NCBI GenBank assembly: GCA_000996355.1
Contig: LCAH01000001.1
Location: 18,482 to 82,481 of the forward strand
Reading direction: 5' to 3'
Source: Candidatus Uhrbacteria bacterium GW2011_GWC2_41_11
Lineage (GTDB): Bacteria > Patescibacteriota > Patescibacteriia > UBA9934 > GWF2-40-263
Length of the DNA stretch: 64,000 bases
In this document: piece after piece, positions 1 through 41,533 of the stretch
Layout: each line of letters begins with the position of its first letter
How positions within the stretch are numbered: the stretch's first letter is position 1
The notes under the pieces: model-generated
Databases searched by the model: none
Told to the model about the DNA's origin: nothing
The model's input: the letters and a program-made list of their open reading frames with translations, nothing else
Position numbers and translations under genes: made by a program

Positions 1-26
1 GTGATACACTTCTTGTCAGAAAATAC

Positions 27-686: not shown

Positions 687-710
687 AAAATTGGTTTCAA
701 CAAAAGATGT

Positions 711-1106
711 ATGGAAAAAAGAAAACCGCGTGATGAGGTTATTCTTGTCTCACCATCATCGCGCCAGCGGGCTCAGTTTATTGTGGGGGTCAGTGTGGCT
801 GTGATTCTTGTTTTTGTCGGATGGATTTTTTCCTTGCGTGATTTTTTTACAGGAGTGAGGTGGTCCATACCCGGAACTGCTTCTTGGCATGAACTATCTC
901 AAGGAATGCGTGGAATTGTTGAAAATGTACAAAATCAAAGCGCTCCTTCTGTTTCTGGATTGCAACAAGCAGTAGCAACGGTAACTCTCCCTCTTGAAGA
1001 GACGGTCCAGAAGCGAGTCTCAGCCATGGAAGTTGTTGCATCTCTTATGAAACAAGAATTAGAACACCCTTCTTCAAATGTAAATTCTGTCCATTCATCC
1101 GATTGA
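711..1106 (+). CDS. hypothetical single-pass membrane protein
   Basis: 131 aa ORF with one hydrophobic helix (FIVGVSVAVILVFVGWIF); no recognisable domain. Confidence 0.4.
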   Translation: MEKRKPRDEVILVSPSSRQRAQFIVGVSVAVILVFVGWIFSLRDFFTGVRWSIPGTASWHELSQGMRGIVENVQNQSAPSVSGLQQAVATVTLPLEETVQKRVSAMEVVASLMKQELEHPSSNVNSVHSSD

Positions 1107-1116
1107 TTTCCTTTGA

Positions 1117-3627: not shown

Positions 3628-3688
3628 ACAAATTTTTTCCTCTGTCCTAGGATGCCTCCGCTTCGTGGTGAATTTGGTTTTCATCGCG

Positions 3689-4162
3689 ATGTGGTTTCCA
3701 ACAAGGAGAGAAAAATTGAAGACAATCAGGATGTGGAGTTTTTTGATGATGGTTTTCTCCGGTCTGGTCATGGTGTTTACCATCGGATACGCCCAAGCAG
3801 GTTACTGGACTGGACATTCCGGAATCCGTACGGTGGTTCAGGATTCGGATGTTCTACCTGTCTTGCCCGATCCGGTTCAGGAAGCAGCCATCAATTGTGT
3901 CCAGAGATGGACCGAGAAAGTTGGCGATGAGAGTGATATCCTCAATGAATGGGTCTATCAAGATGAGACCTATAGGATCACCATTGAGGAGGTTGGTAAA
4001 AACGCTGCCTTCTGTTTTCTCGAAACCCTCGATGAGGGTGATGTGATTTTTCATGCCATGATTATCCTGAATCAGACAACAAACAAGGCCGGCTGTTATA
4101 CGGCCTACGGATGCGATCTCCAGACCCATTATTGTGGAATATTTATCATCTGTCATCCGTGA
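3689..4162 (+). CDS. hypothetical secreted/membrane-anchored Cys-rich protein (GC-rich insert; start uncertain, 3689 or 3731)
   Basis: Downstream part of ORF 3467..4162. N-terminal hydrophobic segment MWSFLMMVFSGLVMVFTIGYAQA followed by a soluble Cys-containing domain. Local GC is clearly above the flanks. Confidence 0.4.
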   Translation: MWFPTRREKLKTIRMWSFLMMVFSGLVMVFTIGYAQAGYWTGHSGIRTVVQDSDVLPVLPDPVQEAAINCVQRWTEKVGDESDILNEWVYQDETYRITIEEVGKNAAFCFLETLDEGDVIFHAMIILNQTTNKAGCYTAYGCDLQTHYCGIFIICHP

Positions 4163-4189
4163 CAAATTTTCCACATTCAAACGTTTAAA

Positions 4190-4226
4190 CCTGCCAAAAG
4201 GTACTTGCCTGGCAGGTTTTTGTTTT
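4190..4226 (+). terminator. rho-independent terminator (CCTGCCA..TGGCAGG stem plus T-run)
   Basis: Perfect 7 bp stem followed by TTTTTGTTTT directly after the 3689-4162 ORF. Confidence 0.6.
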
Positions 4227-4246
4227 GTACATGAAAAAACGAATAG

Positions 4247-4275
4247 TTGACGTTTTTGGGCTTTTTTGATATGAT
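4247..4275 (+). promoter_or_regulatory. sigma70-like promoter TTGACG-17-TATGAT upstream of rpmF
   Basis: -35 TTGACG at 4247-4252, 17 nt spacer, -10 TATGAT at 4270-4275, about 30 nt upstream of the rpmF start. Confidence 0.5.
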
Positions 4276-4307
4276 TTGTTTGTTGAATTTCGTATAGTTA
4301 TTTTTTT

Positions 4308-4613
4308 ATGGGTCTTCCTGGACATCGAAGAACAAGTTCTGATAAACGACGTCGTTCCGCACACTTTGCCTTGAAAAAGAGTTCGGTTACTTCTTGCCAA
4401 CAGTGCGGAGAACCCGTACTTGCTCATCGAGCATGTCGAAGTTGTGGTTTTTATAAGGGTAGAACAGTGCTAAAAATAGCATCAAAAACGACTCCTGTTT
4501 CCAAACCAGTGGTAAAAAAGGCGACAACAGTCAAAAAATCAGAAGCAAAGACAACTCCTGCAAAAAAAATTCAGAAACCAGAAAGTGCAGAATCTCCTTC
4601 CTCTGTTTCCTAA
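4308..4613 (+). CDS. rpmF: 50S ribosomal protein L32 with Lys-rich C-terminal extension
   Basis: N-terminus '[18 protein letters not shown]' and CxxC...CxxC zinc-ribbon typical of L32. Confidence 0.8.
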
Positions 4614-4644
4614 AATATATTCGATCTCATCCATTTTGTTCTTT

Positions 4645-5151
4645 ATGTCAAATCGGCACCTTGCCCGCACGATTGCTATGCAATCGCTTTATCAATGGGA
4701 TTTTAACGGTCAGACAGCTGGCGCGTTGAATTCGTATATTGAATTTAACCGTCGAGAATTCGCACCGAATTTTGATGATGGTGGGTATGTGAAAACAACA
4801 TTGGATGGAGTTTTTGCTCATTTTGATGAAATCAATGATTTGATTTGTCGTTTCGCTCCGAATTGGCCGCTCGAGAATATGATGGTCATTGATCGATCGA
4901 TTCTCCGTATTGGGGCGTATGAATTGAAATATGTTCCACTCATTCCTTCGAAAGTCGCTATTAACGAAGCGATTGAACTTGCTAAAAGTTTTGGTGGAGA
5001 AGCATCTGGTCGATTTGTGAATGGGGTACTTGGAGCTATTTATAAAGACATGCTTGTTCGTGAGGAAATTAAAGACATCGATAAGCTTCCTTTGAAGCAA
5101 AAAGAAAAAGAAGAAGATTCTTCAACTAAATCTGTGGAAACTCCTTCGTGA
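4645..5151 (+). CDS. nusB: transcription antitermination factor NusB
   Basis: '[14 protein letters not shown]', '[12 protein letters not shown]', '[23 protein letters not shown]' NusB signature. Start taken at the internal ATG at 4645 just after the rpmF stop. Confidence 0.85.
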
Positions 5152-6242: not shown

Positions 6243-7520
6243 ATGCGATATTCCTGTCTTTTTTCTCAAACAAATAAAACAGCACTTCATGACACAGAAT
6301 CCGTGAATGCCAGACTGCTCACGCAAGCTGGTTTTGTGGATCAGGAAATGGCAGGAGTGTATACATGGCTTCCACTCGGACTTTCCGTCATGAAAAATGT
6401 TGAACAGATTGTTCGTGAAGAGATGAATAAACTTGGAGCATCAGAAATTTTCATGCCCTCACTTCAACCAAAAGAATATTGGGACATCACAAACCGATGG
6501 AATAATGTAGACATTCTTTTTAAGATTCAATCGCAAACAGAAAAACAGTATGCACTCGGGGCAAGTCACGAAGAGGTGGTGACGCCGCTTGTGCAGAAAT
6601 TTGTGCATTCTTATCGCGATCTGCCAGCTGTCGTGTATCAAATCAATACAAAGTTTCGTGATGAACTACGAGCAAAATCTGGTGTGTTACGTGGAAGGGA
6701 GTTTCGCATGAAAGATATGTATAGTTTTCATGCAACCCAGGAGGATTTGACTGTTTTTTACGAGCGCGTCTTGCGTGCATATGTGGACGTTTTTTCTCGT
6801 TGCGGATTAAACGTCAAAGTCGTACAAGCAAGCGGGGGTATTTTCACACAAAATCCATCTCACGAATTTCAAGCGATTACGTCGGCAGGAGAAGATGTGA
6901 TCGTAGCCTGTGAGAAATGTGAATTCGGACAAAACAGTGAGGTGGCAACCGTGCAAGAAAACAATGCGTGTCCGATGTGTGGAGCGAAATTATTTAAAAC
7001 AAAAGGCGTTGAGGTTGGAAATATTTTTGATCTTGGAACGAAATATTCTGACGCGTTTGATTTAAATTTTTCTACAGAAGATGGTCAGCGCAAACGGGTG
7101 CTTATGGGGTGTTATGGGATTGGAACAACTCGTCTGATTGGTGCCATCGTTGAAGCTTCCCATGATGAAAAGGGAATAATTTGGCCTAAATCTGTCGCAC
7201 CTTATCCGATTCATTTGGTCTCATTGAATGCAAAGGATTCTGTTGTAACTGATCAGGTATATGCGACCGCATCTGCTTTGTATGATGAATGTACATCTGC
7301 AGGAATAGAGATTTTTTGGGATGATCGCGCAGATGTTTCTGCTGGGGAAAAATTTGCCGATGCAGATTTGATAGGGATTCCATTGCGCCTTGTCATTTCT
7401 GAACGAACCTTGAGAGAAAATGCTGTTGAATGGAAAGAACGATATCTCTCAGAATCAAAACAAGTTTCACTTGAAAATATTCGAGAGGAGGTTGAACTTT
7501 TTATCCATGAACCTTCTTGA
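6243..7520 (+). CDS. proS: proline--tRNA ligase (short form)
   Basis: N-terminus 'MRYSCLF..ESVNARLLTQAGF', class II aaRS motifs, 'YGIGTTRLIGAIVEASHDEKGIIWPKSVAPY' anticodon-binding region. Confidence 0.9.
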   Translation: MRYSCLFSQTNKTALHDTESVNARLLTQAGFVDQEMAGVYTWLPLGLSVMKNVEQIVREEMNKLGASEIFMPSLQPKEYWDITNRWNNVDILFKIQSQTEKQYALGASHEEVVTPLVQKFVHSYRDLPAVVYQINTKFRDELRAKSGVLRGREFRMKDMYSFHATQEDLTVFYERVLRAYVDVFSRCGLNVKVVQASGGIFTQNPSHEFQAITSAGEDVIVACEKCEFGQNSEVATVQENNACPMCGAKLFKTKGVEVGNIFDLGTKYSDAFDLNFSTEDGQRKRVLMGCYGIGTTRLIGAIVEASHDEKGIIWPKSVAPYPIHLVSLNAKDSVVTDQVYATASALYDECTSAGIEIFWDDRADVSAGEKFADADLIGIPLRLVISERTLRENAVEWKERYLSESKQVSLENIREEVELFIHEPS

Positions 7521-7524
7521 TTAT

Positions 7525-8058
7525 ATGAAGAGAACTATTCTTCTTGTTGTTTGTTTTGCCTTATTTGGATTCGGATGTATGCGGTCTTCTGTTCCACTGC
7601 AGCCAACATCTGTTCAGACAGGATGGAATACATATGTGAATGTGGATTATCGTTTTTCTTTTGATTATCCATCTGGCATGGAAATGCGTTCTCGTCCGTC
7701 CGAACAGCAGGCAACGGAATATATGGATCTCCCTGGAAAGTTTTTTGCGTCTTTGCGTGATGTAACTCGTGAGGATCAACCAGTGAGTATTGCTTATTTT
7801 TATGCCATGGACGGGAAAACAATTGATCAATTTTTGGAAGCACTCAAAGCATCCGATTCTCAGAATGTTTTAATAAAAGAGACTGTGGACATGGAGAAAG
7901 GAAAAATTCAGATGAAAAAAGTGGTGAGTACGACTGCTCTCGGAGTTGACAAGGTTCATTATTTGTTTGTCGACGGAACAACACTTGTCGTGATTTCTCA
8001 GTTCATGAATGAAAATGTGGCGTTTGAACCAATCATACAAACAGTCAGAGGACAGTAA
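7525..8058 (+). CDS. hypothetical lipoprotein
   Basis: Signal peptide plus lipobox 'MKRTILLVVCFALFGFGC'. Start taken at an internal ATG of ORF 7420..8058 because the upstream part overlaps proS. Confidence 0.5.
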   Translation: MKRTILLVVCFALFGFGCMRSSVPLQPTSVQTGWNTYVNVDYRFSFDYPSGMEMRSRPSEQQATEYMDLPGKFFASLRDVTREDQPVSIAYFYAMDGKTIDQFLEALKASDSQNVLIKETVDMEKGKIQMKKVVSTTALGVDKVHYLFVDGTTLVVISQFMNENVAFEPIIQTVRGQ

Positions 8059-20324: not shown

Positions 20325-20905
20325 CAGATCATGCGTTACGTATCCTTTCTTTGGGAGGAGTCGTTGCTTTTCCAACAGAAACCGCCTATGCACTTGGAGC
20401 AGATGCGACGAATGATTCTGCTGTTGAACGTATTTTTTTGATAAAGGGAAGAGAAGAAGAAAAAACAGTTCCGCTTATTGCTTCAAGTTTGGAAATGGTT
20501 GAGAGATATGCCATTTTGTCTCAAACATTACAACAACTTGCAAATCAATATTGGCCAGGACCATTAACACTTATATTACCTGTACGAGACAATCATCATC
20601 TTGCTCCCCAGGTTGTTCGAATGAACGGAACCATAGCGATTCGAGTCTCTTCCCATCCTCTTGTACACGATTGGTCGCAAAAACTTGGGGTTCCTATTGT
20701 TTCCACATCAGCCAATCGATCAGGTGAACCAACATGTTATTCTATAAATGAAGTAAAACAATCTTTTTTGAACAAGGTTTATCAACCAGATTTTTTCTGG
20801 GATGGAGGAATTCTTCCTATTCGTAAACCGTCGACGATCATCATGGAAAAAGAAGGAAAAATTGTTGTCCTTCGTCAAGGGGAGATTTTTGTTTCTCTTT
20901 TTTAA
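20321..20905 (+). CDS. tsaC: L-threonylcarbamoyladenylate synthase (TsaC/YrdC)
   Basis: 'GGVVAFPTETAYALGADATN..VERIFLIKGR' YrdC signature. Confidence 0.8.
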   Translation: MTDHALRILSLGGVVAFPTETAYALGADATNDSAVERIFLIKGREEEKTVPLIASSLEMVERYAILSQTLQQLANQYWPGPLTLILPVRDNHHLAPQVVRMNGTIAIRVSSHPLVHDWSQKLGVPIVSTSANRSGEPTCYSINEVKQSFLNKVYQPDFFWDGGILPIRKPSTIIMEKEGKIVVLRQGEIFVSLF

Positions 20906-20965
20906 GAATAAAAAATGGGAGGGGGCTGACGAAATACATTTCTTTTGGTACGCTGTGGTCGGTTT

Positions 20966-21053
20966 GGTGGGGTGGCCGAGCGGTTTAAGGCACCGGTCTT
21001 GAAAACCGGCAGACTGAAAGGTCTCGCGAGTTCGAATCTCGCCCCCACCGCCA
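20966..21053 (+). tRNA. tRNA-Ser (anticodon TGA)
   Basis: Acceptor GGTGGGG/CCCCACC, D arm GCCGAGCGGTTTAAGGC, anticodon stem CCGGT/ACCGG with loop CTTGAAA, long variable arm, T arm GCGAGTTCGAATCTCGC, CCA encoded. Confidence 0.85.
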
Positions 21054-21107
21054 GATTGGCAACTTTGAACCCAAGCAAAATAAGGGTTCTGCTGCTAAAA
21101 TTACAAG

Positions 21108-22154
21108 ATGATTTACAAGAAACCGGCAAAATTAAAAAGTGGTGACAAAGTAGCGATTGTGTCGCCGTCTTGGGGTGGCCCAAGTGTTTTCCCGCACGTA
21201 TACGAAAACGGTATCAAGTTCTTGAAGGAATGGGGTCTTGAAATCGTTGAATATCCAACTGCTCGCATGGATGCGGGTTTCCTACGAGAAAATCCTCAAG
21301 TCAGAGCTAAAGACATAAACGACGCATTTACTAATCCTGAAATCAAAGCAATCTTTGCTTCAATAGGAGGAGATGATTCGGTTCGGATTCTTCCTTTTGT
21401 AGATAAGAAAATAATCGCTGAAAATCCTAAAGTCTTAATGGGCTATTCGGATACTTCAACTCTCCACGTATTCGCAAATCTCCAAGGTCTTGTAACTTTC
21501 TACGGCCCTTCAATTATGGCCGGCTTCTCACAAATGGAATCTTTGCCGGAAAGTTTCAAATCTCACGTGCGAGAGGTACTCTTTGATCCAAAAGATAGTT
21601 ACGAATACAAAGCATATGGAACGTATTGCGATGGCTACTTAGATTGGTCAAACAAAGAGAATTTAGGAAAAACGAACCTGATGAAATCGGATGACGGCTG
21701 GCATTGGCTCCAAGGAAATTCCGTCGTTCAAGGAGAACTATTTGGCGGATGTATTGAAGTCTTGGAAATGATGAAGGCGACTGACTTCTGGCCATTAAAA
21801 GAGTTTTGGAAAGACAAGATACTTTTCTTAGAAACTTCGGAAGAGAAACCCTCTATCCATTACGTCGATCATGTTCTACGAAATTATGGAATGCTCGGCG
21901 TGTTCAATCAAATAAGTGGCTTTATCTTCTCTCGTGCACGAGACTATTCTGACGAGGAGAAAAAGGAGTTGGAAGAAAAGATTGTTACTATCGTTTCGAA
22001 AGAATTTAATAGGCCAGATTTGCCAGTTATCACCAACTTCGATGTGGGACACACTGATCCTCAGTTGGTCTTACCACTGGGGGTTAAGGCAGAAATTGAT
22101 TGTCAGTCTAAGAAAATTAGATTAGTAGAACCCTGGTTATCTTTAGACCTGTGA
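21108..22154 (+). CDS. LD-carboxypeptidase (peptidase S66; LdcA/MccF-like)
   Basis: 'GDKVAIVSPSWGGP', 'LMGYSDTSTLH' (nucleophilic Ser) and C-terminal His/Glu region typical of S66. Confidence 0.75.
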   Translation: MIYKKPAKLKSGDKVAIVSPSWGGPSVFPHVYENGIKFLKEWGLEIVEYPTARMDAGFLRENPQVRAKDINDAFTNPEIKAIFASIGGDDSVRILPFVDKKIIAENPKVLMGYSDTSTLHVFANLQGLVTFYGPSIMAGFSQMESLPESFKSHVREVLFDPKDSYEYKAYGTYCDGYLDWSNKENLGKTNLMKSDDGWHWLQGNSVVQGELFGGCIEVLEMMKATDFWPLKEFWKDKILFLETSEEKPSIHYVDHVLRNYGMLGVFNQISGFIFSRARDYSDEEKKELEEKIVTIVSKEFNRPDLPVITNFDVGHTDPQLVLPLGVKAEIDCQSKKIRLVEPWLSLDL

Positions 22155-23110
22155 ATTCGATGACCTTACAATGTGATCGATGTGGAGAGAAACATTCTTA
22201 TAAAATTTCACAAAAAGATCTCGATTCTGGTTTAACTCTTAATTTCGCTTGTTTGAATATAAAAAGACTCCCAAGGGTTAGTAGTTTCCGCATTGATTTT
22301 ACAAAAAACGCGCCGTCCACGAAGAGGGAGGAGGAGGAAAGAGTCTCAACCCTTTATGGGCCGAATGATGTCGTGGCTAAAACTAACCGTAAAAACGAGA
22401 TCAATCAACCGAAGTTATGGTTGATTTACGATTTTGATCAGTATTTTGAAGAGATAATCAATTCATACATAATTGGCTCTTTTTATCCTGTTGCCACCTC
22501 CTGTACGGCTTTGGCAGAGAGATTGGTAAATCTTTTCATTATCAAAATGAGAGATTTACACACTCAGTCCCTTTTGGATGTTCAATTAAAAAAGTATGTT
22601 CACTCTCGTAATCAAAACTGGCAGTCGTTTGAGTTGAATATGAAAGTTCTACAAGTATGGAATTTACTCAATACTAATCAAAAAGGTTGGTTTAAGGACT
22701 TGCTTGATATTCGCAACAGGGCTGTCCACTTCCAATCAGCTTTTGATCCTCAGCCTGATTCATTGAAGGCAGTGCAAATCTTGCACAAGATTATCGATAG
22801 TTATTTCAGTCCATTTGAAAGAAAAGATGTCCTAAGGGTATTCGAGATACCAGGTGAAATATGGGTAAAAGAAGAAAAATTAAACGATCCTTTTGTTAAG
22901 GCCTTCATATTGCCCTGCTGCAGAGACTTTGCTTCTCAAGGAACGCTTAACAATAAAAATATTTACCACGAAAATGACGCTGTGATCGGACCATTTTCTG
23001 AAGCTGACTTCATTGAGCAGCGGAAAAATTACCAGGCCAATCTAACCTACGAACCTATATATCAGAAAGGAACTATCGAAGGTAAGGAGTTTACTTTTAG
23101 GATTATTTGA
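22151..23110 (+). CDS. Abi_2 (AbiD/AbiF)-like HEPN-motif protein, candidate abortive-infection protein
   Basis: 319 aa; 'WFKDLLDIRNRAVHFQ' matches the Rx4-6H HEPN motif in the context typical of the Abi_2 family (L..iRN..aHh). N-terminal CxxC pair. Family assignment is by motif only. Confidence 0.45.
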   Translation: MNSMTLQCDRCGEKHSYKISQKDLDSGLTLNFACLNIKRLPRVSSFRIDFTKNAPSTKREEEERVSTLYGPNDVVAKTNRKNEINQPKLWLIYDFDQYFEEIINSYIIGSFYPVATSCTALAERLVNLFIIKMRDLHTQSLLDVQLKKYVHSRNQNWQSFELNMKVLQVWNLLNTNQKGWFKDLLDIRNRAVHFQSAFDPQPDSLKAVQILHKIIDSYFSPFERKDVLRVFEIPGEIWVKEEKLNDPFVKAFILPCCRDFASQGTLNNKNIYHENDAVIGPFSEADFIEQRKNYQANLTYEPIYQKGTIEGKEFTFRII

Positions 23111-23290
23111 TTAGTAGATCTTTCGCGCAGACTTAGGTACCTCAAACCATTCGGGATGAACTTTGTAGATATCCCTTAGTTTCTGCATACTTTTATCAAG
23201 ATTTTCGAATTTGAGCCACGTTTTCCGTTCAAAGTTCCGGGCATCATCCCCGCCAATAGTTTTGAAAAGTGCGCCTAAAATATCCTTGTT
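23111..23290 (-). pseudogene. stop-to-stop ORF remnant without start codon (copy A of a paralogous pair)
   Basis: Minus-strand frame encodes ..ILGALFKTIGGDDARNFERKTWLKFENLDKSMQKLRDIYKVHPEWFEVPKSARKIY*. No ATG/GTG/TTG near the 5' end. Homologous to 23856-24020 with synonymous substitutions. Confidence 0.4.
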
Positions 23291-23355
23291 TTAAGCTATA
23301 GTCCAAAATGAAAAAGTTGTAAAATGTAAGAACCCTAAAGGGATTCGAATTTCAA

Positions 23356-23820
23356 ATGACCAAAGAATTTAAGTATAAATTTGATGCTGGTCCAGTTGCT
23401 TCACAGGAAGATCTCTTGAGCGAATGGGCGATAGGTAATTGCCGCAGAGCAGTGCAGCTCTATACTTTTAGAAAGAAAAACCTCTTTCTAAAACTAGAGC
23501 AAGTTTTGTGTCCCGCGGCATATAATGAAACAGGTGTTTTTGTTATCAATAAAGATCAAGAGTTTTCTTTTGACTCTCTTGTAGACGGCGATATTATTTA
23601 CGCAGAGAAGATCAGAAATAAAAACGGTAAAGAAGTCGACAAAAGCGAAAATACTTTCAATTCAGCGGATGAGTATATTATTTCACTTCACACCGCTTTA
23701 TATACGGGAGAGAAAGACCGCGAAATATGGCATGCAACCGCAGTAGAAGGATCGAGTTGTTTCTGGCCACTTGAGAAATTTCTTCATTTTTATAAACCGA
23801 TTGTGGCAAAACGAGTATAA
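23356..23820 (+). CDS. hypothetical protein, possible NlpC/P60-like Cys-His-His hydrolase
   Basis: 154 aa; order Cys (LCPAAY) .. 'GDIIY' .. 'SLHTALYTGE' .. 'IWHAT' resembles the NlpC/P60 catalytic layout. Weak. Confidence 0.3.
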   Translation: MTKEFKYKFDAGPVASQEDLLSEWAIGNCRRAVQLYTFRKKNLFLKLEQVLCPAAYNETGVFVINKDQEFSFDSLVDGDIIYAEKIRNKNGKEVDKSENTFNSADEYIISLHTALYTGEKDREIWHATAVEGSSCFWPLEKFLHFYKPIVAKRV

Positions 23821-23855
23821 GTTTTATAATACCTATATGGCAAAGTCTAAATCTA

Positions 23856-24020
23856 CTAGTAGACCTTCTGGGCGAAAGTAGGTACCTCGAATAACTCCGG
23901 CTTTTCTTGGTACATTTGCCTCAATTTTCGTATAATTCTATCAACATTGCTGTAACTAAGCCGTCCTATCGGTTCAAAATTGCGGACATCGACACCGCCA
24001 ATAGTTTTGAAAAATAGGTG
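23856..24020 (-). pseudogene. stop-to-stop ORF remnant without start codon (copy B of a paralogous pair)
   Basis: Minus-strand frame encodes HLFFKTIGGVDVRNFEPIGRLSYSNVDRIIRKLRQMYQEKPELFEVPTFAQKVY*. About 50% aa identity to copy A, ending in the same ..PE(W/L)FEVP......Y*. Confidence 0.4.
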
Positions 24021-24112
24021 TCAAAATTTCCTTATTTTGCGTTACATTTTAAAACCAAAAAGTTGTAAATTTGATACAAAGCAAAGAATTTTAAAAGTAC
24101 CTAACTGATTTT

Positions 24113-24745
24113 ATGGCGCTTCGATCCACGAGATTCGATGATTATTTTTTAAAAAATATAAATCCAGTTATTCGATTTTTGATTATTTCAGACACAGTTC
24201 TTCGAGGAGCCTCAGGATTACTTGGACCAATTTTTGCGTTTTTTATTCAGGGATTCGTAGAAGGAGGAGATGAAGCAGTTGCGGGCGTAGCGGCTGCTAT
24301 CTATCTTTTTACGAAAAGTATTTTTCAAATTCCTATCGCACATCTTATTGATCGAATCCGTGGAGAAAAAGACGATTTTTGGTTCATGTTTATCTTTACT
24401 CTTCTTATTGCGTTTATCCCATTATTTTATCTTGTTATCCATACACCTTTACAACTTTATGTGATTCAGTTTATTCTTGGAATTTTTACTGCGTTTACCT
24501 TTCCGACCTATATGGCAATTTTTACTCGCCACATAGATAAGACAAAAGAGGGGGTCGAATGGGGGATGTATTTTACTCTTACCGATTTGACAGGTGCCGC
24601 TTTTGCAGCCGTTGGAGGATATATTGCCATGAGTTCTGGTTTTCCAACCCTTATTATCGCCGTTGTTTTTCTTTCTGTCATCGGATCTCTTCTTCTTTTT
24701 CCCATTAAATCTTTTCTTCAGAAAAAGAATGATCTTCGTTTATAA
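24113..24745 (+). CDS. 6-TM membrane protein resembling one half of an MFS transporter (possible fragment)
   Basis: 210 aa with six predicted hydrophobic helices. Only half the length of a 12-TM MFS. Confidence 0.35.
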   Translation: MALRSTRFDDYFLKNINPVIRFLIISDTVLRGASGLLGPIFAFFIQGFVEGGDEAVAGVAAAIYLFTKSIFQIPIAHLIDRIRGEKDDFWFMFIFTLLIAFIPLFYLVIHTPLQLYVIQFILGIFTAFTFPTYMAIFTRHIDKTKEGVEWGMYFTLTDLTGAAFAAVGGYIAMSSGFPTLIIAVVFLSVIGSLLLFPIKSFLQKKNDLRL

Positions 24746-24775
24746 TTTAGCATGAGGTATTTATTCAGTTTTTTT

Positions 24776-24802
24776 ATCCGTCTTGATTGGCGGATTTTTT
24801 GT
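24776..24802 (+). terminator. hairpin terminator (ATCCG/CGGAT plus T-run)
   Basis: 5 bp stem, 10 nt loop and TTTTTTGTTT directly after the 24113-24745 ORF. Confidence 0.4.
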
Positions 24803-24811
24803 TTAAAAATA

Positions 24812-24969
24812 TTGACATTTTAAATTATTGTGTTAGTCTTTTTTGTTGCTCATTTACAATAATGGTTTGTCAACAGCAAATGGTCAGAAAACGAGTTTTT
24901 TGTCGATTTACTGTTGACAAACCTTGCAAAGAACAAGGTTCCTGAAAGTCTATCCTTTCCTGTCGACAG
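24812..24969 (+). promoter_or_regulatory. control region: TTGACA -35-like box, 13-bp perfect inverted repeat GGTTTGTCAACAG/CTGTTGACAAACC, and palindrome CTGTCGACAG
   Basis: TTGACA at 24812-24817; inverted-repeat arms at 24864-24876 and 24911-24923, each containing TTGACA on one strand; palindrome at 24960-24969, about 85 nt before the first ATG of the downstream operon. Confidence 0.45.
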
Positions 24970-25052
24970 TTGTGAAGAGAAAGGAAAAATCTCGAAAAGA
25001 ACGGGATTTCAGGCCGAAAAGGTGTGGTGTAAAGAACACTACACACAAACAA

Positions 25053-26297
25053 ATGGAGGAGAAGATGAAAAAAGGAAAAGAGAATATTGCGATCAGCCAA
25101 CGGTTTTGCCGCTGGGCGGTTCGCGAAGATGGTCTCAAATTTGCTGGGAGTATCATCGCTATACTCATCATTGCTGGGTTCATCCTTGGCATTGATGTCG
25201 TAATCGCGATGTTCATGACGGACAAAGATCTTGTCCGGTTGATCGCCTGGTTCGGGATAATAGTTTTCGGATTTTTTGTCTTCACGTTTAGTCTGAGAAA
25301 CAGGTTTCATGAGGATGAACATCTGTGGGGCAGGGCTCTACAGCATCTTGGCGAAAAATTAGCTTATCAATTTTTCGTCAGACCGCACGAAGTCAGATTC
25401 GTCCATTTGTTCGGACTCAAGGAAACCAGGCGCCAGGCCGTGGAGGAAATTCGGAAATCCGATTATGGTTATTTTCTGGATTGGACGCGCAAGCATCTTG
25501 TCGTTCGTTCAATCAATGAGTTCCTTCTTTACCACGCGTTCATCCAATCTTCTATTCAAGAAGAAGGAATACGTCCGTCACCAGAGTTGCTTCGACTCAA
25601 GCGGCGGTTCTGGGCTGCTTGGAATATGGCTTCGGCTATGGGTATTCCGCTTCTCAAGGTGAAGGATTATGTCTTTTGTCGGAAAGCGGTTGATGTTCTT
25701 CCAACCTTTCAACCGTTTGATCGGTCGGACGAGATGTTGCGTTATTTCGATCGATTCTGCATACACGCGAATTGGGCCGTGCGAGATGAGAACACGGAAG
25801 TTGCACGAGCATGTCGGGATTTCCTCGGAACAGCCGGAGCGGATCTGGTCGCATACGTGGCGGACTCAGGGATTGATCTTCGAAAAACGAAGGTCGGTCA
25901 GGATGAAAGATCTGTTCCTTTTATCGAACGGATCGAAGCCGCGTTCGCATGTCGAGAAGCGGGAATGGATGAGTTGCATAAAATGTGTACGACGGCTCAA
26001 TGGAAGGCTGTCCTTGCCATGGAGCCACATGTTTTTCTCCCGATTCGGGAACAAGTCCTGTTTCATTCTGAAAGGGAAAAAGAAGGATATTTTCGACGGA
26101 TGGTGGACATCATGCATCCGACAGTTTTCTTCGATGTTTCACAAGCCGAACAAGGTCAGACGCCATGGCGGTATTCGGCTGGTGGACCGTATTGGTCTGA
26201 GATCCATAACGGTCGATGGATTGATGGAAAAGTTCGTCAGTCAGTCCTGGACGATGTTTTCGGCATTGGGTGGAATAAGGTCGGGAGGGTGTCATGA
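25053..26297 (+). CDS. hypothetical 2-TM membrane protein with large cytoplasmic domain (GC-rich)
   Basis: ATG at 25053 preceded by GGAGGAG. The track's TTG start at 24924 lies inside the inverted repeat and is unlikely. TM hairpin (FAGSIIAILIIAGFILGIDVVIAMF / LIAWFGIIVFGFFVFTFSL) then ~330 aa with no recognisable motif. Confidence 0.55.
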   Translation: MEEKMKKGKENIAISQRFCRWAVREDGLKFAGSIIAILIIAGFILGIDVVIAMFMTDKDLVRLIAWFGIIVFGFFVFTFSLRNRFHEDEHLWGRALQHLGEKLAYQFFVRPHEVRFVHLFGLKETRRQAVEEIRKSDYGYFLDWTRKHLVVRSINEFLLYHAFIQSSIQEEGIRPSPELLRLKRRFWAAWNMASAMGIPLLKVKDYVFCRKAVDVLPTFQPFDRSDEMLRYFDRFCIHANWAVRDENTEVARACRDFLGTAGADLVAYVADSGIDLRKTKVGQDERSVPFIERIEAAFACREAGMDELHKMCTTAQWKAVLAMEPHVFLPIREQVLFHSEREKEGYFRRMVDIMHPTVFFDVSQAEQGQTPWRYSAGGPYWSEIHNGRWIDGKVRQSVLDDVFGIGWNKVGRVS

Positions 26298-27379
26298 AGA
26301 AATTAATTGATGTCGTTACTGTTTTTCTTTCTCTTGCATCAGCTATTACTACCTGGGAAGGTTTGCGATATGCAAACCGCCTTGCGGATACGGAACTTCA
26401 GCGGTTCTGGATTCCGACAGCAGTGGCAATCTGTTTCTTCCTTTGTGCCTCTGCTTTCTGGCTGTCTTTGTTTCAGTGGTATCCGAAGGCAGACAAGGAA
26501 AAAAAATCCAAACTCCAGCTTATTGTTGTTGGGGGATGTGCGGTTATCTTTTTCGGTTCGACTTTGTGGTCGGTCATTGGCATCGGAGGCATCTCGGCCA
26601 TGACCTATCATATGAGCGGCACGATCAACGACGCAGATGCTATTCAAGGTTCTTTGTCCAGGCGCGTTGAACGAGAATGGAGTGTGGCAACTTCTCTGCA
26701 ATATCTCGAGCAGCAATTTCAAACCTTGTCTAATCTCGAGGAAAAGCAAGGAGCTTTCAGTGGATATGCCAACACGGGAGACGTGACTATTCAGTTAGAA
26801 TCTCTCTCAAAGGCGCTTGGGAATCTTCGCACGGTTCTTCAGAAAAATGCGGAAGAAAGTCGGACGGATCTGTCCGAATCCAAGGATCGCGTTGAAAAAC
26901 TTCGGCAGATTGTTGACGAGCCGGAAACACCCATTTCCAAAAGGATGAGCGATTTCAGCAAGGCACTGACCTCGTTGAACGAAGTATTTCAGCGAGTTCA
27001 GAGTCGACAAATGGCCAGTTTTGTCCGTGAGATCTCCGGAGACCTCGATACATTTGCTGCGGTTCAGGCACCTACGCAAAAAAATGATGTCGGAGAGGCG
27101 CAGCGTGCGGCCTTGGATCGGCTCAAGGCAACTGTGGTCGCGGCAAAGCAAACATTAAAGAAAATCTCGGAAGGGGCTGAAAGCTCTGAAGAGATAAAAC
27201 TCAAGAACTTGACTACAATTTCGCCCGGCATGGCAGTCATCAAATATGCCGGGGCGATTGTGGGAGAGATCGCAGCAGCTATTGCGCTGGATTTTTTTCC
27301 GGTCATCTTCTTTATCATTCTTGCCCTGACAGCGGATATTCGCAAAAAGGAACAGGAAGAGGAAGAAGGACTCGAATAA
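26294..27379 (+). CDS. hypothetical membrane protein: 3 N-terminal TM, ~200 aa coiled coil, C-terminal TM (GC-rich)
   Basis: Start overlaps the upstream stop (ATGA), suggesting translational coupling. Coiled-coil-like heptad region in the middle. Ends with a hydrophobic helix and an acidic tail. Confidence 0.55.
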   Translation: MKKLIDVVTVFLSLASAITTWEGLRYANRLADTELQRFWIPTAVAICFFLCASAFWLSLFQWYPKADKEKKSKLQLIVVGGCAVIFFGSTLWSVIGIGGISAMTYHMSGTINDADAIQGSLSRRVEREWSVATSLQYLEQQFQTLSNLEEKQGAFSGYANTGDVTIQLESLSKALGNLRTVLQKNAEESRTDLSESKDRVEKLRQIVDEPETPISKRMSDFSKALTSLNEVFQRVQSRQMASFVREISGDLDTFAAVQAPTQKNDVGEAQRAALDRLKATVVAAKQTLKKISEGAESSEEIKLKNLTTISPGMAVIKYAGAIVGEIAAAIALDFFPVIFFIILALTADIRKKEQEEEEGLE

Positions 27380-27385
27380 ATACTT

Positions 27386-27412
27386 CCGTCGGTTTTCACC
27401 GGCGGTTTTTTG
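27386..27412 (+). terminator. rho-independent terminator after the two-gene operon
   Basis: CCGTCGG..CCGGCGG stem (one G-U pair) followed by TTTTTTGTTTG. Confidence 0.5.
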
Positions 27413-27455
27413 TTTGCGATAAACAAAAGAGACCAGTATACTAAAAGGAACGAAT

Positions 27456-27968
27456 ATGAAAGAATTATCTCAAACATCTTCGTCAGAAATCTTGCAGTAC
27501 GGACGGGCATTACTCACCTGGCAGGTTGATGAATATTTGAATCATGAACGTCCGCGGTCATGGTATGTGATTGGGGCAATTCTTTCTGTTGCCTTGATTA
27601 TCTATGCAATCGCAACGGCAAATTTTCTTTTTGCTGTTATTATTCTCATGGCAGGACTCATCACGCTTTTTTCAACCTTTCAATCCCCGGATCGCATTGA
27701 GGTCATTTTGACCACCACGGGAGTTGTTGTCGGTGATGCTTTTTACGAATTTAAATCAATGAAGAATTTTTCCATTATTTACGAACCCCCAGAAATAAAA
27801 GTTTTGTATTTGGATTTTTTGAAGCCGTGGATGCCTTTATTATCTGTTCCTTTGGAAGAAATGGATCCAAACCGCGTTCGTGAAATTCTCCTTTCTTTTT
27901 GTGAGGAAAACATCACTCGGCAAGAAGAATCCTTGACGGATCTTGTTCGAAGACTGTATAAATTGTAA
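27456..27968 (+). CDS. hypothetical 2-TM membrane protein
   Basis: 170 aa ORF with two hydrophobic helices. No motif. Confidence 0.45.
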   Translation: MKELSQTSSSEILQYGRALLTWQVDEYLNHERPRSWYVIGAILSVALIIYAIATANFLFAVIILMAGLITLFSTFQSPDRIEVILTTTGVVVGDAFYEFKSMKNFSIIYEPPEIKVLYLDFLKPWMPLLSVPLEEMDPNRVREILLSFCEENITRQEESLTDLVRRLYKL

Positions 27969-27975
27969 GCGTTTT

Positions 27976-28052
27976 GCGCCCGTAGCTCAGTTGGATAGAG
28001 CATCAGCTTGCGGAGCTGAGGGTCGCACGTTCAAGTCGTGCCGGGCGCACCA
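27976..28052 (+). tRNA. tRNA-Arg (anticodon GCG as read; unusual)
   Basis: Acceptor GCGCCCG/CGGGCGC, D arm GCTCAGTTGGATAGAGC, anticodon stem TCAGC/GCTGA with loop TTGCGGA, T arm GCACGTTCAAGTCGTGC, CCA encoded, followed by a terminator hairpin. Confidence 0.75.
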
Positions 28053-28134
28053 GAAAATCCGTCACTTTAGGTGGCGGTTTTTCTTTTGTGTTTTTTTGAG
28101 GTGCGTTACACTGCTTATATTAGTTATTGTATAT

Positions 28135-28995
28135 ATGGATACTCTTCATCACGAAACATTAGATACTCAAAAAGAACAGGACTGGTTTGACCAATCGCAT
28201 CAGATTCAGGAGATACGAAAAAAAGGGTTGGAAGCAGTTATGCGCGGAGCAACACAAGAGCAAATATTACATGCATTTGAAGGACGAGAAAAAAAGGTTT
28301 GTTGCATGGATGAAGGAATATCTGAAGGAGTCATTCGTACCGCTGGTTCAGGGATTCTTTTGGAAGGAACAGATCGTTTAGCTTTTATCGAGGCAATGAA
28401 AAAAAATAACATCCAAGGAATACAAAGTCATGAAGAATGTGGAGCAGCTGCCCTTTTTAAAAAACAAAAAGGAATCGAAGGGAAGACAACAGATGAGATT
28501 GCTATCGAACACGCAAAACAATTAGCTCATGAAATTGGTGTTCCATATCTTGGACATATTTCCGCATCTGAAATGAAACGTCCAAAAGAATATCATCATG
28601 CGCGTGTGCTTTATTATGATGGAACAGGTCGATTTCAACCACATGCTCTGAATGGGGTATGGCCAAATGGATTTGTAGTGAGTCGTCGTTTTTTAACAGA
28701 GGAAGCTTCTTTGCGGGAAGTTGCACTGGCTTTAGATATTGCATTTGGAGATCATGGATTTGGAAAAAAGTTTTCCACACGAGAGTCGTTTTTAATCATT
28801 GCGATTGGAGATACAAAGAAGGATGGTTTTTCCGCGACTCAAATGGAAGAGGAACTTATGAAATTACAACAGCAATTATTTCGTTCTCGTGATATCAGGT
28901 CTGGACGAATAGAGATTCGAGATTTTTCAGCTCCAGAAATGGAACAAGAAAAAAATATGGACGAATTAGGGCAAGTTGAGTCTGCTGTTTTTTAA
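28135..28995 (+). CDS. hypothetical protein (287 aa)
   Basis: Internal ATG of ORF 27943..28995. The upstream part of that ORF overlaps the tRNA and its terminator. No recognisable domain. Confidence 0.45.
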   Translation: MDTLHHETLDTQKEQDWFDQSHQIQEIRKKGLEAVMRGATQEQILHAFEGREKKVCCMDEGISEGVIRTAGSGILLEGTDRLAFIEAMKKNNIQGIQSHEECGAAALFKKQKGIEGKTTDEIAIEHAKQLAHEIGVPYLGHISASEMKRPKEYHHARVLYYDGTGRFQPHALNGVWPNGFVVSRRFLTEEASLREVALALDIAFGDHGFGKKFSTRESFLIIAIGDTKKDGFSATQMEEELMKLQQQLFRSRDIRSGRIEIRDFSAPEMEQEKNMDELGQVESAVF

Positions 28996-28997
28996 AT

Positions 28998-31052
28998 ATG
29001 TCTATCCATTTGGGTACGGATATTGGAGAACTTCGTGGTATGGGGGAAGCAGCGGTTCGAGATTGCCGACGTTTGGGAATTGTCTCTGTTTGTGACCTTC
29101 TTTGGCATGTTCCGTATCGGTATGAAGATTTTACGTTAACAAAACCGATTTCACGCCTTTCTCATGATGATCTTGTGACGTTGACCGGTCGGATTGTACA
29201 GATCTCAAGCCGTCCGAGCAAAAATCGACGAGTTCAGTTGACAGAGGCTTTATTTGAAAATGAAACAGGAGGACTCAAAGTGACCTGGTTTAATCAAACC
29301 TATTTGGAACGTCTCTTGCGTCCAGGAATGGAAGTGGCGCTTGCTGGGCGTATCGATCGTCGATTTGGTACAACAACTCTTTTGAATCCGGTTCATGAAC
29401 CACCTGGGGTGAATCTTCAGACAGGAAGAATCATTCCTGTTTACGCTTTATCCGGATCATTGACTCAACGTCGTTTACACACAGCGATTGAAGCATCAAA
29501 ACAGGCGTTTGAGGAACTGATCGATTGGTTACCTGAAAAAATAAAACAAGAAGAACTTTTTTTTGATCTTCCAATTGCACTCAAAACACTTCATTTTCCA
29601 GAATCACAGAATGAAATTTCTGCGGCACATGCACGTCTTGTTTTTGATGAACTTTTTTTACAGCAATTGCTTTTTGCAGAAGTACGCAAACAACGTGTGA
29701 CCTGTCAGGCTCAAATTATTTCTATAGACATTGAAGTATTAAAGACATTTGTTGCAGGACTTCCATTTCGTTTAACAAATGCTCAGCGCAAGGTATCTTG
29801 GAAAATAATGCAAGATCTTTCCAAAGAAGTTCCCATGAATCGTTTGCTTCAAGGAGATGTTGGATCTGGAAAAACTATTGTTGCCGCCTTGGCGGCGAAA
29901 GCTGTTTCTGTTGCCGGGTTTCAAACCGTGTATCTTGCACCAACTGAAATGCTTGCCATACAACAACATCGATCGTTTTGTCGATTTTTTCCGTCCGAAA
30001 AAATTGGGTTGTTGACGCGAACAAACTGTCTGATCGGAGAAAAAGAAGTTTCACATGAGGTTATGCTTAAAACACTTGCGTCCGGTCGCGTGCAAATGGT
30101 CATTGGAACACATGCGTTGCTGCAAAAAGATGTGCAATTTGCCAAGTTGTCTTTTGTAATTATTGATGAACAACATCGGTTTGGTGTGCGTCAACGTCAT
30201 GCCCTTTTTGAACGGGAAGGTGTTTCTGTTCCACATTTACTCTCCATGACAGCGACTCCCATTCCACGATCTTTGGCCTTAACGTTGTACGGAGATCTTG
30301 ATATTTCCGTTTTAGATGAATCTCCCGAAGGTCGTTTACCTATTACAACTCGTCTTATTGTTCCGGGAAAAGAAAAAGAAATGGAACGTGTTCTTGTTCA
30401 GGAATTAAATGCAGGATCCCAAGCCTATATTGTCTGTCCGTTCATTGATCCTTCAGACATAGAAGGAAGGGAATCTGTACAAGAGGTAGCTGAACGATTG
30501 AAAAAAGGATGTTTAAAAGATCATCGAATCGGTCTTTTGCACGGACGTCTTTCTTCTTCAGAACGAGATCAGGTTTTAGAAGCGTTTATCAAAGGCAGTC
30601 TTGACGTTGTGATTGCAACAACAGTTATAGAAGTTGGAATGGATGTTCCGAACGCAACAGTGATGGTCATTTTAGGAGCCGAATGTTTTGGTCTTGCGCA
30701 ATTGCATCAGCTGCGCGGACGTGTGGGACGTTCAGACAAATCATCGTATTGTTTTTTGTGTCCGAAGACGATTTCAGAAAAAATTCAGGAACGATTGCAA
30801 ACAGTTGTCTCCTGTCAAAACGGATTTGTTCTTGCTGAGCGTGATCTGGAGCTGCGTGGAAGTGGAAATTTTTTCGGGCAAGCACAATCTGGATTCCCGG
30901 ATTTTCGTTTTGCATCCATGTATGATGTTTTTGCAATGAAAAAAGCACGCGATTGGGTTCGAAAATTTCAGGAACAAGATCCTGAATATACACAATATCC
31001 ATCTGTACGCGAACGAATTTTAGAAGTATTTGAAGACGTTCATGGAGAGTGA
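28998..31052 (+). CDS. recG: ATP-dependent DNA helicase RecG
   Basis: Wedge/OB N-terminus, helicase motifs 'GDVGSGKT', 'DEQHRFGV', 'TATPIPR', 'QLHQLRGRVGR'. Confidence 0.9.
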   Translation: MSIHLGTDIGELRGMGEAAVRDCRRLGIVSVCDLLWHVPYRYEDFTLTKPISRLSHDDLVTLTGRIVQISSRPSKNRRVQLTEALFENETGGLKVTWFNQTYLERLLRPGMEVALAGRIDRRFGTTTLLNPVHEPPGVNLQTGRIIPVYALSGSLTQRRLHTAIEASKQAFEELIDWLPEKIKQEELFFDLPIALKTLHFPESQNEISAAHARLVFDELFLQQLLFAEVRKQRVTCQAQIISIDIEVLKTFVAGLPFRLTNAQRKVSWKIMQDLSKEVPMNRLLQGDVGSGKTIVAALAAKAVSVAGFQTVYLAPTEMLAIQQHRSFCRFFPSEKIGLLTRTNCLIGEKEVSHEVMLKTLASGRVQMVIGTHALLQKDVQFAKLSFVIIDEQHRFGVRQRHALFEREGVSVPHLLSMTATPIPRSLALTLYGDLDISVLDESPEGRLPITTRLIVPGKEKEMERVLVQELNAGSQAYIVCPFIDPSDIEGRESVQEVAERLKKGCLKDHRIGLLHGRLSSSERDQVLEAFIKGSLDVVIATTVIEVGMDVPNATVMVILGAECFGLAQLHQLRGRVGRSDKSSYCFLCPKTISEKIQERLQTVVSCQNGFVLAERDLELRGSGNFFGQAQSGFPDFRFASMYDVFAMKKARDWVRKFQEQDPEYTQYPSVRERILEVFEDVHGE

Positions 31053-40948: not shown

Positions 40949-41533
40949 ATGATGAAAAAATTGGAGACAGTGATTTTGGCTCAGGAGATGATGACCCACG
41001 TCGGAGAGTTGGGCGAGGGAATGAAAGACACGTTGTATGTCAACGTGAAGATTCCTCTTTCGGCCTACCACGAACCTCCGCCGCCATTTACGCCTCCTGG
41101 CCCTTTTCTCATCGATGAGTCTCAACCCACTTGGGATGGAACGAATCTTGAGGATTTGTCTGCAGAGGATCAGGCGGCCTGGGCCGCACGGCTTCGGTGG
41201 ATCAATCAGTATGTCCTAGGGTTCGTCCCGAATCCTCTGGATCCGGAGCAGCTTGAGGATGCCCCGATCGATTGCATCGGTGGGACATTCAATAGCGGAG
41301 ACATCGCCTCCTATCCGTTGTGTGCGGTGTTTTTCCGTGGAGAGGATGTTATTCTCCAGTTTTCCTCGTACGTCTCTGACGGAAGAGGATGGCGATTTGC
41401 CCTCTCTCTTGCCTCGCGGATTGTGAAAGCGAGGAGGACTGGAATTCAGGTCGGCGTCTGTTATTCGGACGAAGACTTTTATTCCGAGAACTGGAGGGGG
41501 CCTTTTTACACTCCTTCTTGGATGAAGGAGTGA
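40949..41533 (+). CDS. hypothetical protein (GC-rich insert)
   Basis: 194 aa with a Pro-rich stretch (EPPPPFTPPGP). Local GC is markedly higher than the genome background. Confidence 0.45.
   Translation: MMKKLETVILAQEMMTHVGELGEGMKDTLYVNVKIPLSAYHEPPPPFTPPGPFLIDESQPTWDGTNLEDLSAEDQAAWAARLRWINQYVLGFVPNPLDPEQLEDAPIDCIGGTFNSGDIASYPLCAVFFRGEDVILQFSSYVSDGRGWRFALSLASRIVKARRTGIQVGVCYSDEDFYSENWRGPFYTPSWMKE

Follow-up and report, generated by a model that had tools for sequence, protein, structure and literature searches.

The question raised by this locus is how a run of accessory genes came to lie between two transfer RNA (tRNA) genes, and what those genes might do for their host. The locus is found in a 64,000-nucleotide (nt) stretch of Candidatus Uhrbacteria bacterium GW2011_GWC2_41_11, of a groundwater lineage of Patescibacteria (GenBank assembly GCA_000996355.1, contig LCAH01000001.1, positions 18,482 to 82,481), which we call the window and to which all coordinates refer unless another locus is named. 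An earlier note on this DNA, made from the letters alone, had picked out the interval between tRNA-Ser(tga) and tRNA-Arg(gcg) as a variable region with defence-like content. The explanation that we favour, with moderate confidence, is that this is a fixed and decayed variable region, which arose through three or more separate acquisitions and whose own mobility genes were lost or were never present. Comparisons of sequence and gene order indicate that at least the gene of a HEPN-domain protein, HEPN319, and a two-gene membrane cassette came by horizontal transfer.

On this reading the region has three modules. The first (21108-23110) is an S66 peptidase of the MccF-like branch with the HEPN319 gene following tightly behind it. 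The second (23112-24745) holds a small protein, p154, and half of a major facilitator superfamily (MFS) transporter, MFS210, each placed after a copy of one fragment of about 213 nt; this module may be what a segmental duplication or rearrangement left behind. The third (24864-27415) is a self-contained transcription unit of 2.55 kb that is foreign in its synonymous-site composition.

Boundaries of the region

Both of the tRNA genes named in the earlier note are present, and ARAGORN and Rfam agree on them. The left anchor is tRNA-Ser(tga) at 20966-21053 (60.9 bits with the Rfam tRNA model), while tRNA-Arg(gcg) at 27976-28052 (68.1 bits) belongs to a conserved right flank; both are on the plus strand. 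Between them lie seven plus-strand open reading frames (ORFs), in the order S66, HEPN319, p154, MFS210, p410, p361 and p170. A search of the interval with Rfam returns the two tRNAs only, with no known riboswitch or other RNA in the repeats or the leader that are described below.

The last of the seven ORFs is of another kind. p170 (27456-27968; 170 amino acids, aa) is a conserved membrane protein with homologues in two related loci, L023 and L024, at 63% and 55% identity (tblastn), and in both loci the homologue is directly upstream of tRNA-Arg(gcg) and RecG. As p170 travels with these two genes in relatives, its synteny marks it as a core gene that is outside the accessory part. The conserved order of the right flank is p170, tRNA-Arg, p286 and RecG; in L023 too, a p286 homologue stands between tRNA-Arg(gcg) and RecG. 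Since p170 is core, the accessory part ends at a terminator at 27386-27415, and its right boundary is p170 and not the tRNA-Arg gene. It therefore extends from the 3′ side of tRNA-Ser(tga) to this terminator, approximately 21054-27415 (6.4 kb), and the claim that the interval holds no housekeeping genes has to be given up.

Collections hold no close relatives of this genome, the nearest RecG outside the window's own population being 59% identical. A RecG-based scan of genome contigs was uninformative, returning only relatives from other phyla at no more than 38-45% identity. Our synteny comparisons are based on three loci (L023, L024 and L025) in which RecG is 55-59% identical. In L024 (RecG 56%) tRNA-Ser(tga), the p170 homologue, tRNA-Arg(gcg) and RecG follow each other in the window order, with 1.9 kb between tRNA-Ser(tga) and the p170 homologue. 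This is the only relative that keeps both tRNAs, and the gene content of its gap differs from that of the window, consisting of three unrelated small minus-strand genes, one of which is MazG-like. None of the six accessory genes (S66, HEPN319, p154, MFS210, p410 and p361; 0/6) was found in the RecG loci fetched from relatives.

The flanks of these loci hold some further genes of interest. Just upstream of the p170 homologue in L023, the closest relative (RecG 59%), is a fusion (6382-7812 of that locus) of a cyclodipeptide synthase (CDPS) and a SBP_bac_3 periplasmic solute-binding domain, an unusual architecture. A 219-aa gene of L024 (7608-8267), located between tRNA-Arg(gcg) and RecG, fuses a GIY-YIG nuclease with a NUDIX hydrolase, which suggests that the gap after tRNA-Arg is also variable. 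RecG itself is split into 427 and 268 aa in one assembly of the region (L001/L004; GCA_003523645.1, DOFP01000025.1; window 28998-31052), compared with an intact 684 aa in the window and in other assemblies. Two gaps interrupt its alignment to the window, and the split is probably an assembly frameshift.

Neighbourhoods of the HEPN319 gene

Homologues of HEPN319 sit in six other genomic contexts, and in three to four of these a site-specific recombinase is near. The homologue in L018 (80% identity) starts 127 nt after tRNA-Ser(gct) and has a large serine recombinase 0.75 kb downstream; no repeats resembling attachment (att) sites were found around it. In L019 (85%, truncated) the gene follows guaA and is 1.6 kb from tRNA-Ser(gga). 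In L029 (61%) it comes directly after a serine recombinase and adjoins an Old nuclease (PADLOC 1e-237). The L030 homologue (61%) stands immediately behind a type III restriction-modification pair (6e-170 and 1e-233) and has an AAA_15/21 ATPase on its downstream side. The L027 homologue (58%) is directly after a full-length MFS gene, with a tyrosine integrase 2.8 kb downstream and a SoFic-like gene upstream, and that of L021 (65%) is among small unannotated ORFs.

There is no partner gene that is conserved across the six loci, and the HEPN319 gene is therefore a stand-alone module. It has a GC content of 30-37% in hosts of 31-46%, i.e. it is AT-rich relative to each host. These neighbourhoods point to a role in conflict or defence, by guilt by association and not as proof.

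A GC-rich two-gene cassette

The second mobile component is the two-gene membrane operon that the earlier note had called compositionally foreign, a description that our figures bear out. We took 59 window ORFs as the baseline for per-gene composition, with a mean GC content at third codon positions (GC3) of 0.32 (standard deviation, sd, 0.07) and a window mean GC of 0.41. A GC profile of the 64 kb in 2-kb bins has its maximum, 0.477, at 25-27 kb and its minimum, 0.362, at 23-25 kb; the remaining bins range from 0.38 to 0.43. The operon (25065-27379) has a GC content of 0.48 and a GC3 of 0.49 (0.487 for p410 and 0.486 for p361; z = +2.3). Its GC1 and GC2 are ordinary, so the excess is located at synonymous sites.

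The anatomy of the cassette is as follows. At its 5′ edge an inverted-repeat search found a 60-nt hairpin with 29-nt arms and a 2-nt loop (24864-24923), unique within the window. This is followed on the plus strand by a leader (24924-25064) with three AAGAAC boxes, at 24929, 24997 and 25032, which aligns to 962-1101 of another locus, L022. The first gene, p410 (25065-26297; 410 aa), is predicted to have two N-terminal transmembrane helices and a soluble domain of about 330 aa. The second, p361 (26294-27379; 361 aa), overlaps it by 4 nt, with three predicted transmembrane helices, a long coiled coil and one to two more transmembrane helices. An intrinsic terminator, a stem-loop with a T run (27386-27415, plus strand), closes the cassette.

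The same gene pair recurs at different sites in two other genomes, with a protein identity of 41-49% (48-49% for p361). Its neighbours in L022 are small ORFs on one side and pyrH/xseB on the other, and the L026 copy adjoins a putative Clp-type ATPase gene. Each copy stands out from its surroundings: GC3 is 0.57-0.63 in the L022 cassette versus 0.35-0.40 in the flanking genes, and 0.62 in that of L026 versus 0.19-0.24 in the adjacent genes. The terminator is at the same place in all three copies. A hairpin with 28-nt arms (897-954) also precedes the L022 copy; it shares a TCAACAG/CTGTTGA core with ours, and the outer arms are different yet still complementary. The two leaders are 57.7% identical, compared with 50.3% (sd 2.4 points) for shuffled sequence, and their AAGAAC boxes are at matched positions. 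As the homology extends from the hairpin through the terminator, the mobile unit is approximately 24864-27415, which makes up a whole transcription unit and contains no recombinase. Comparison of the three copies thus shows the cassette moving between genomes of the Candidate Phyla Radiation (CPR) as a unit.

The hairpin and leader deserve a comment of their own. This segment (24864-25064, and 897-1101 of L022) is kept even though the cassette proteins are only 43-49% identical, with compensatory changes in the outer arms, and the fold of 24746-25070 has a z-score of -4.5. Candidate roles for the leader are an operator array and a structured 5′ untranslated region (UTR) that is absent from Rfam.

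The proteins offer fewer clues. p410 has no family match in Pfam, PADLOC, PHROGs or NCBIfam and is nearly an orphan, with one other cluster (P0027, 43%) among 5.8 billion clusters, plus the L026 copy. p361 has 257 representative full-length homologues at E<=1e-3, none with a Pfam family for the p361 region, and its matches in the PDB are to coiled coils only. We also considered a phage or plasmid origin for p361; a tblastn search of 50,697 phage and 72,556 plasmid records gave no match.

Two further window ORFs have an atypical composition. The most deviant of all, at 40949-41533 (194 aa; GC 0.525, GC3 0.59, z = +3.8), has no Pfam match and may be a second foreign insert. The other, at 3467-4162 (GC3 0.53, z = +2.9), overlaps the 3′ end of an 836-aa ORF (1117-3627) by 160 nt; its frame may have been mis-called, or it may be one more atypical gene.

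Acquisition, descent and assembly effects

Several observations weigh against a history of repeated acquisition. The direct evidence that the gap varies comes mainly from one distant locus, L024, and the relatives are all very distant (RecG at most 59% identical), with synteny broken on both sides. There is no presence/absence polymorphism, every assembly that carries the region being at least 99.8% identical with the same content. The genes outside the cassette deviate mildly, with GC3 z-scores of +0.1 to +1.1 for S66, HEPN319 and p154 and -0.8 for the MFS gene; their GC1 is low, and their GC3 is average to slightly raised except in the MFS gene. The atypical composition that is expected of a genomic island is therefore clear for the cassette only. 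Outside the window the S66 gene was not seen in a mobile context, no search aimed at its homologues there having been made, and it may be an ordinary gene of the lineage. The interval ORFs include no integrase, recombinase or transposase in Pfam, PHROGs and NCBIfam scans, and a search of 20800-28300 for att-like repeats of either tRNA end found none, the only tRNA-related pair being 19 nt at 79% identity inside the S66 gene. Nor does any interval protein match a model of PADLOC-DB 2.0, searched with its hidden Markov model profiles only, without system rules; the sole entry at E<=0.1, PycTM at 0.023, we treat as noise. The PADLOC model for PD-T7-4, a defence system to which we return below, is likewise matched by none of 23 HEPN319 family members.

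Might there have been no acquisition at all? The genes would then be lineage-specific and vertically inherited, their composition would reflect gene-specific constraint or expression level, and the tRNAs would be incidental. A region that is identical in every sampled strain, in which most genes are mild in GC3 and no mobility genes or att sites were found, is what such a history would leave behind. We nevertheless consider it quite unlikely. Gene-specific constraint sits badly with a GC excess at third positions in a cassette that recurs at unrelated sites in two genomes, and with the retention of a non-coding hairpin and leader in L022 and of a terminator in all three cassette copies. Vertical descent is also hard to reconcile with HEPN319 homologues in six contexts, several of them recombinase-bearing defence islands, in which the gene is AT-rich relative to its host.

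At the opposite extreme, the region could be an integrative element that is intact or was active recently, or it could be an artefact of assembly at tRNA genes. In favour of this are contigs with a junction or ends at the tRNAs. The 124-kb contig L005 (ena:ERZ27254744:k141_1354563) matches the window from the first base of tRNA-Ser, and its left flank differs (1-4760; GatA, GatC, RNase HII and SerRS). Several short contigs also begin and end inside both tRNAs. We examined L005 as a candidate for a strain-level rearrangement at tRNA-Ser and rejected it as a cross-organism chimera. The GC content of its 4.7-kb flank is 53-59%, versus 41% for Uhrbacteria DNA, and its tRNA starts GGAGGGG and not GGTGGGG, an A for T at position 3 that breaks one pair of the acceptor stem since the 3′ strand, CCCCACC, is kept. 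It is on account of this GC difference and the broken stem that we regard the contig as joined at a conserved tRNA. The window arrangement is itself reproduced in at least five other assemblies, and with no integrase or att site found we give this explanation very little credence.

The short contigs can be understood in the same terms. Three Logan contigs (L002, L003 and L009), compared with window 21025-28004, break inside tRNA-Ser, inside tRNA-Arg and inside the second copy of the direct repeat (approximately 23918-23947). Their coincidence with the interval is an assembly effect, not excision.

We return, then, to a decayed region of at least three acquisitions. The picture in the earlier note of an accessory stretch with a mosaic composition is upheld, and horizontal mobility is seen for at least the HEPN gene, with its six contexts, and the cassette, with its two other genomes. 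That integration was targeted at a tRNA had been proposed as well. We infer that a tRNA may be the reason why insertions gathered here, an integrase and an att site being the signs that were looked for and not found.

HEPN319 belongs to a new HEPN family

What might the HEPN319 protein do? It is 319 aa long (22151-23110, plus strand), with an alternative ATG start at 22160, and its gene overlaps or abuts the S66 stop codon. From a family alignment and an AlphaFold2 (AF2) model we divide it into a putative zinc ribbon, a HEPN domain and a conserved C-terminal domain. The model (pLDDT 87, pTM 0.80) has a beta ribbon at 1-49, helices at 58-219 and an alpha/beta C-terminal domain at 228-318, and the alpha-helical HEPN core fold is present in it. 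A search of 5.8 billion proteins yielded 25 clusters of this family, all from metagenomes or metagenome-assembled genomes; those with a taxon name are all from Patescibacteria but one. Residues C8, C11 and H15 are nearly invariant in the alignment, while C34, E123, R124, N127, R188 and H193 are invariant. The segment R188-N-R-A-V-H193 is a canonical R-[N]-x3-H HEPN motif, and its R188 and H193 do not vary among 23 sequences that reach down to 35% identity. A C-terminal block, 224-291, is also strongly conserved.

The earlier note had described the protein as Abi_2-like. The HEPN part of this description is upheld by fold and motif; the Abi_2 part is not. The window protein has no match to Abi_2 (PF07751) at E<=0.1, and none of the 23 members matches it at E<=1. 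More generally, HEPN319 is without a match in the Pfam, PADLOC, PHROGs and NCBIfam libraries, a Foldseek search of the model against the PDB gave nothing significant, and in a search of IMG/VR it was absent, with no viral structural relative. When members are scanned singly, weak matches appear to DUF4145 (11/23, best E 0.0017, below threshold) and to HEPN_Swt1 (8/23, best E 0.01). HEPN319 is thus a HEPN protein of a new family and not an Abi_2 protein.

Conservation within the C-terminal domain peaks at VFEIPGEIWVKE (residues 224-250, window 22820-22900), which can be set beside VFGMNGRIWVK from the exosome Rrp40 KH domain. The KH-like motif in HEPN319, VFEIPGEIWVK, was followed up with a profile search against the PDB; at E ~1 the match is not significant, and we mention it as a lead only.

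HEPN319 would be a metal-independent RNase with an active site formed by R188 and H193 across a dimer. It would stay silent until triggered and would then cut RNA as an immune protein of the abortive-infection type, for which RAZR/PD-T7-4 is the nearest analogy. The defence-like content described in the earlier note is limited to HEPN319, on account of its fold, motif and homologue neighbourhoods, and, loosely, to the MccF-like peptidase; no known defence family is among the matches.

A bolder idea, which we hold only tentatively, is that HEPN319 founds a Patescibacteria-specific group of single-protein, RAZR-like immune RNases, in which a zinc ribbon would be the sensor, the HEPN domain the nuclease and the C-terminal domain possibly RNA-binding. 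Separately, the cassette would be a new mobile two-gene membrane system of CPR bacteria, for defence or exclusion, with its own cis-regulatory leader.

The peptidase, the repeats and the half transporter

The remaining genes of the interval are more difficult to place. The S66 serine peptidase (21108-22154, plus strand; 348 aa) has both domains of its family (Peptidase_S66 4.8e-32, Peptidase_S66C 1.2e-29), as the earlier note had expected. The closest solved structures are Bacillus anthracis BA3275 (1e-81) and the MccF proteins of Escherichia coli (3e-39) and B. anthracis, both at ~1e-38 to 1e-39, whereas LdcA-type murein carboxypeptidases match at 1e-17 to 1e-5 only. The protein aligns over its full length to BA3275 and MccF and has the catalytic Ser/Glu/His motif set (GYSD, ETSEE and GHTDP). 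Being far nearer to MccF-type structures than to LdcA, it is rightly called 'MccF-like' on these matches. Candidate targets for hydrolysis by such an enzyme are antibiotics of the peptidyl- or aminoacyl-nucleotide kind, or LD-peptide bonds.

Downstream of the HEPN319 gene the diverged pair of direct repeats reported in the earlier note was recovered by blastn, at 69.5% identity over 213 nt. Copy 1 (23112-23323) precedes p154 and copy 2 (23857-24069) precedes MFS210. Translated on the minus strand, copy 1 reads FKTIGGDDARNFE...PEWFEVPKSARKIY and copy 2 reads FKTIGGVDVRNFE...PELFEVPTFAQKVY, each followed by a stop. Both read as the last ~52 codons and stop of an ORF, with the consensus FKTIGG..RNFE...KLR..Y..PE.FEVP..A.K.Y before the stop; neither has a start codon, and stops occur just upstream in both. 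Of the mismatches between the copies, 9, 16 and 24 are at codon positions 1, 2 and 3, respectively, which hints weakly at a coding history. Nothing homologous to these remnants was found in PHROGs, NCBIfam, IMG/VR, the PDB or any fetched locus. We read the repeats as scars of the duplication of an already truncated gene tail. The other candidate, a structured 5′ UTR, has a weak consensus fold (-13 kcal/mol over 273 columns), and the ORF-remnant reading is preferred.

The ORF call between the two copies, p154 (23356-23820, plus strand; 154 aa), is the small Cys-His-His protein of the earlier note. The ORF is where it was said to be, and the spacing of its residues has been judged by eye only: C29...GD77...H112...H126 recalls NlpC/P60, with no NlpC/P60 match at E 0.1. 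It matches nothing in Pfam, PADLOC, PHROGs, NCBIfam, IMG/VR, the PDB or the fetched loci, and an AF2 model from its single sequence was unusable (pLDDT 32). MFS210 (24113-24745, plus strand; 210 aa; Pfam MFS_1 3.6e-17) is indeed half-size, spanning positions 12-180 of the 347 in the MFS_1 profile. It ends in a stop codon that is followed by a terminator-like site (24776-24795), and a second half was not found downstream. A full MFS transporter has two six-helix halves (12 transmembrane helices), of which MFS210 is one.

These genes can also be given an entirely different interpretation, as ordinary metabolism. An M19 dipeptidase (4e-78) and a glutamate racemase (MurI) are found upstream, on the other side of tRNA-Ser, with S66 adjacent to them across the tRNA. 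Together with p154 and an MFS importer they could form a cluster that scavenges muropeptides, in which S66, a member of the LD-carboxypeptidase family, would act as the LD-carboxypeptidase and p154 as a gamma-D-Glu endopeptidase of the NlpC/P60 type. Such a cluster would resemble ykfABCD of Bacillus subtilis. The order of the genes, with the MFS gene following, and the Cys...GD...H...H spacing of p154 fit this proposal. It is, however, unlikely in our view. S66 is much nearer to MccF-type enzymes than to LdcA, p154 lacks an NlpC/P60 match at E 0.1, and the MFS protein is half a transporter. The HEPN gene and the two ORF remnants break up the gene set, and none of these genes accompanies the p170/tRNA-Arg/RecG block in relatives.

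Comparison with known systems

Decayed variable regions adjacent to tRNA genes are an ordinary class, to which this one belongs, and as a genomic-island finding it is ordinary too. The zinc-ribbon-HEPN family with its C-terminal domain and the cassette are moderately novel. With tRNA-adjacent islands and defence-island hotspots the region shares its tRNA adjacency, its mosaic composition, its accessory and conflict-type genes, and its difference from the sole syntenic relative. Unlike them, it is without an integrase, flanking att repeats or a known defence system, and it is fixed in its population and small (6.4 kb). The cassette illustrates cleanly that a small unit, running from promoter to terminator, can move between CPR genomes without a recognisable recombinase, and it offers a handle on gene exchange among these episymbionts.

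In microcin C, MccF cuts the bond between the aminoacyl part and the nucleotide, and homologues that occur alone provide resistance (PMC8323819). The S66 protein shares with MccF both S66 domains, the Ser-Glu-His motifs and a full-length alignment. Unlike in the MccF system, there are no mcc-like biosynthetic genes nearby, and the best match, BA3275, is itself uncharacterised.

In the tiny genomes of the CPR, or Patescibacteria, defence systems are believed to be scarce. If the immune role that we suggest is true, a lineage-specific, stand-alone zinc-ribbon-HEPN family in recombinase-bearing defence islands widens their immune repertoire, and the RAZR type of design extends to a new phylum and a new architecture.

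Within the HEPN superfamily the DUF4145 branch includes zinc-ribbon fusions and proteins embedded in restriction-modification loci (PMC3710099). HEPN319 shares with the DUF4145-like and Abi2/Swt1 branches the four-helix core and the R-[N]-x3-H motif, and it is likewise tied to restriction-modification and conflict genes. It differs in that it scores below every curated Pfam threshold, Abi_2 giving no match at all.

The nearest characterised design, a zinc finger joined to a HEPN domain, is that of RAZR/PD-T7-4, a single-gene abortive-infection RNase of the DUF4145-HEPN type that becomes active when it assembles on ring proteins of phages (PMC13017515). There are differences between the two. 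The members of the HEPN319 family have no match to the PADLOC model of PD-T7-4 (0/23 at E<=1), their putative zinc site is C-x2-C-x3-H...C and not the Cys4 of RAZR, and their HEPN motif is R-x4-H where RAZR has the spacing R146...H154. RAZR lacks a counterpart of the extra and very conserved alpha/beta C-terminal domain of about 95 aa (228-318), and the HEPN319 family, unlike RAZR, is limited to Patescibacteria metagenomes. By analogy, HEPN319 probably works like RAZR, and we place it beside RAZR as a similar design, not as a member of the same family.

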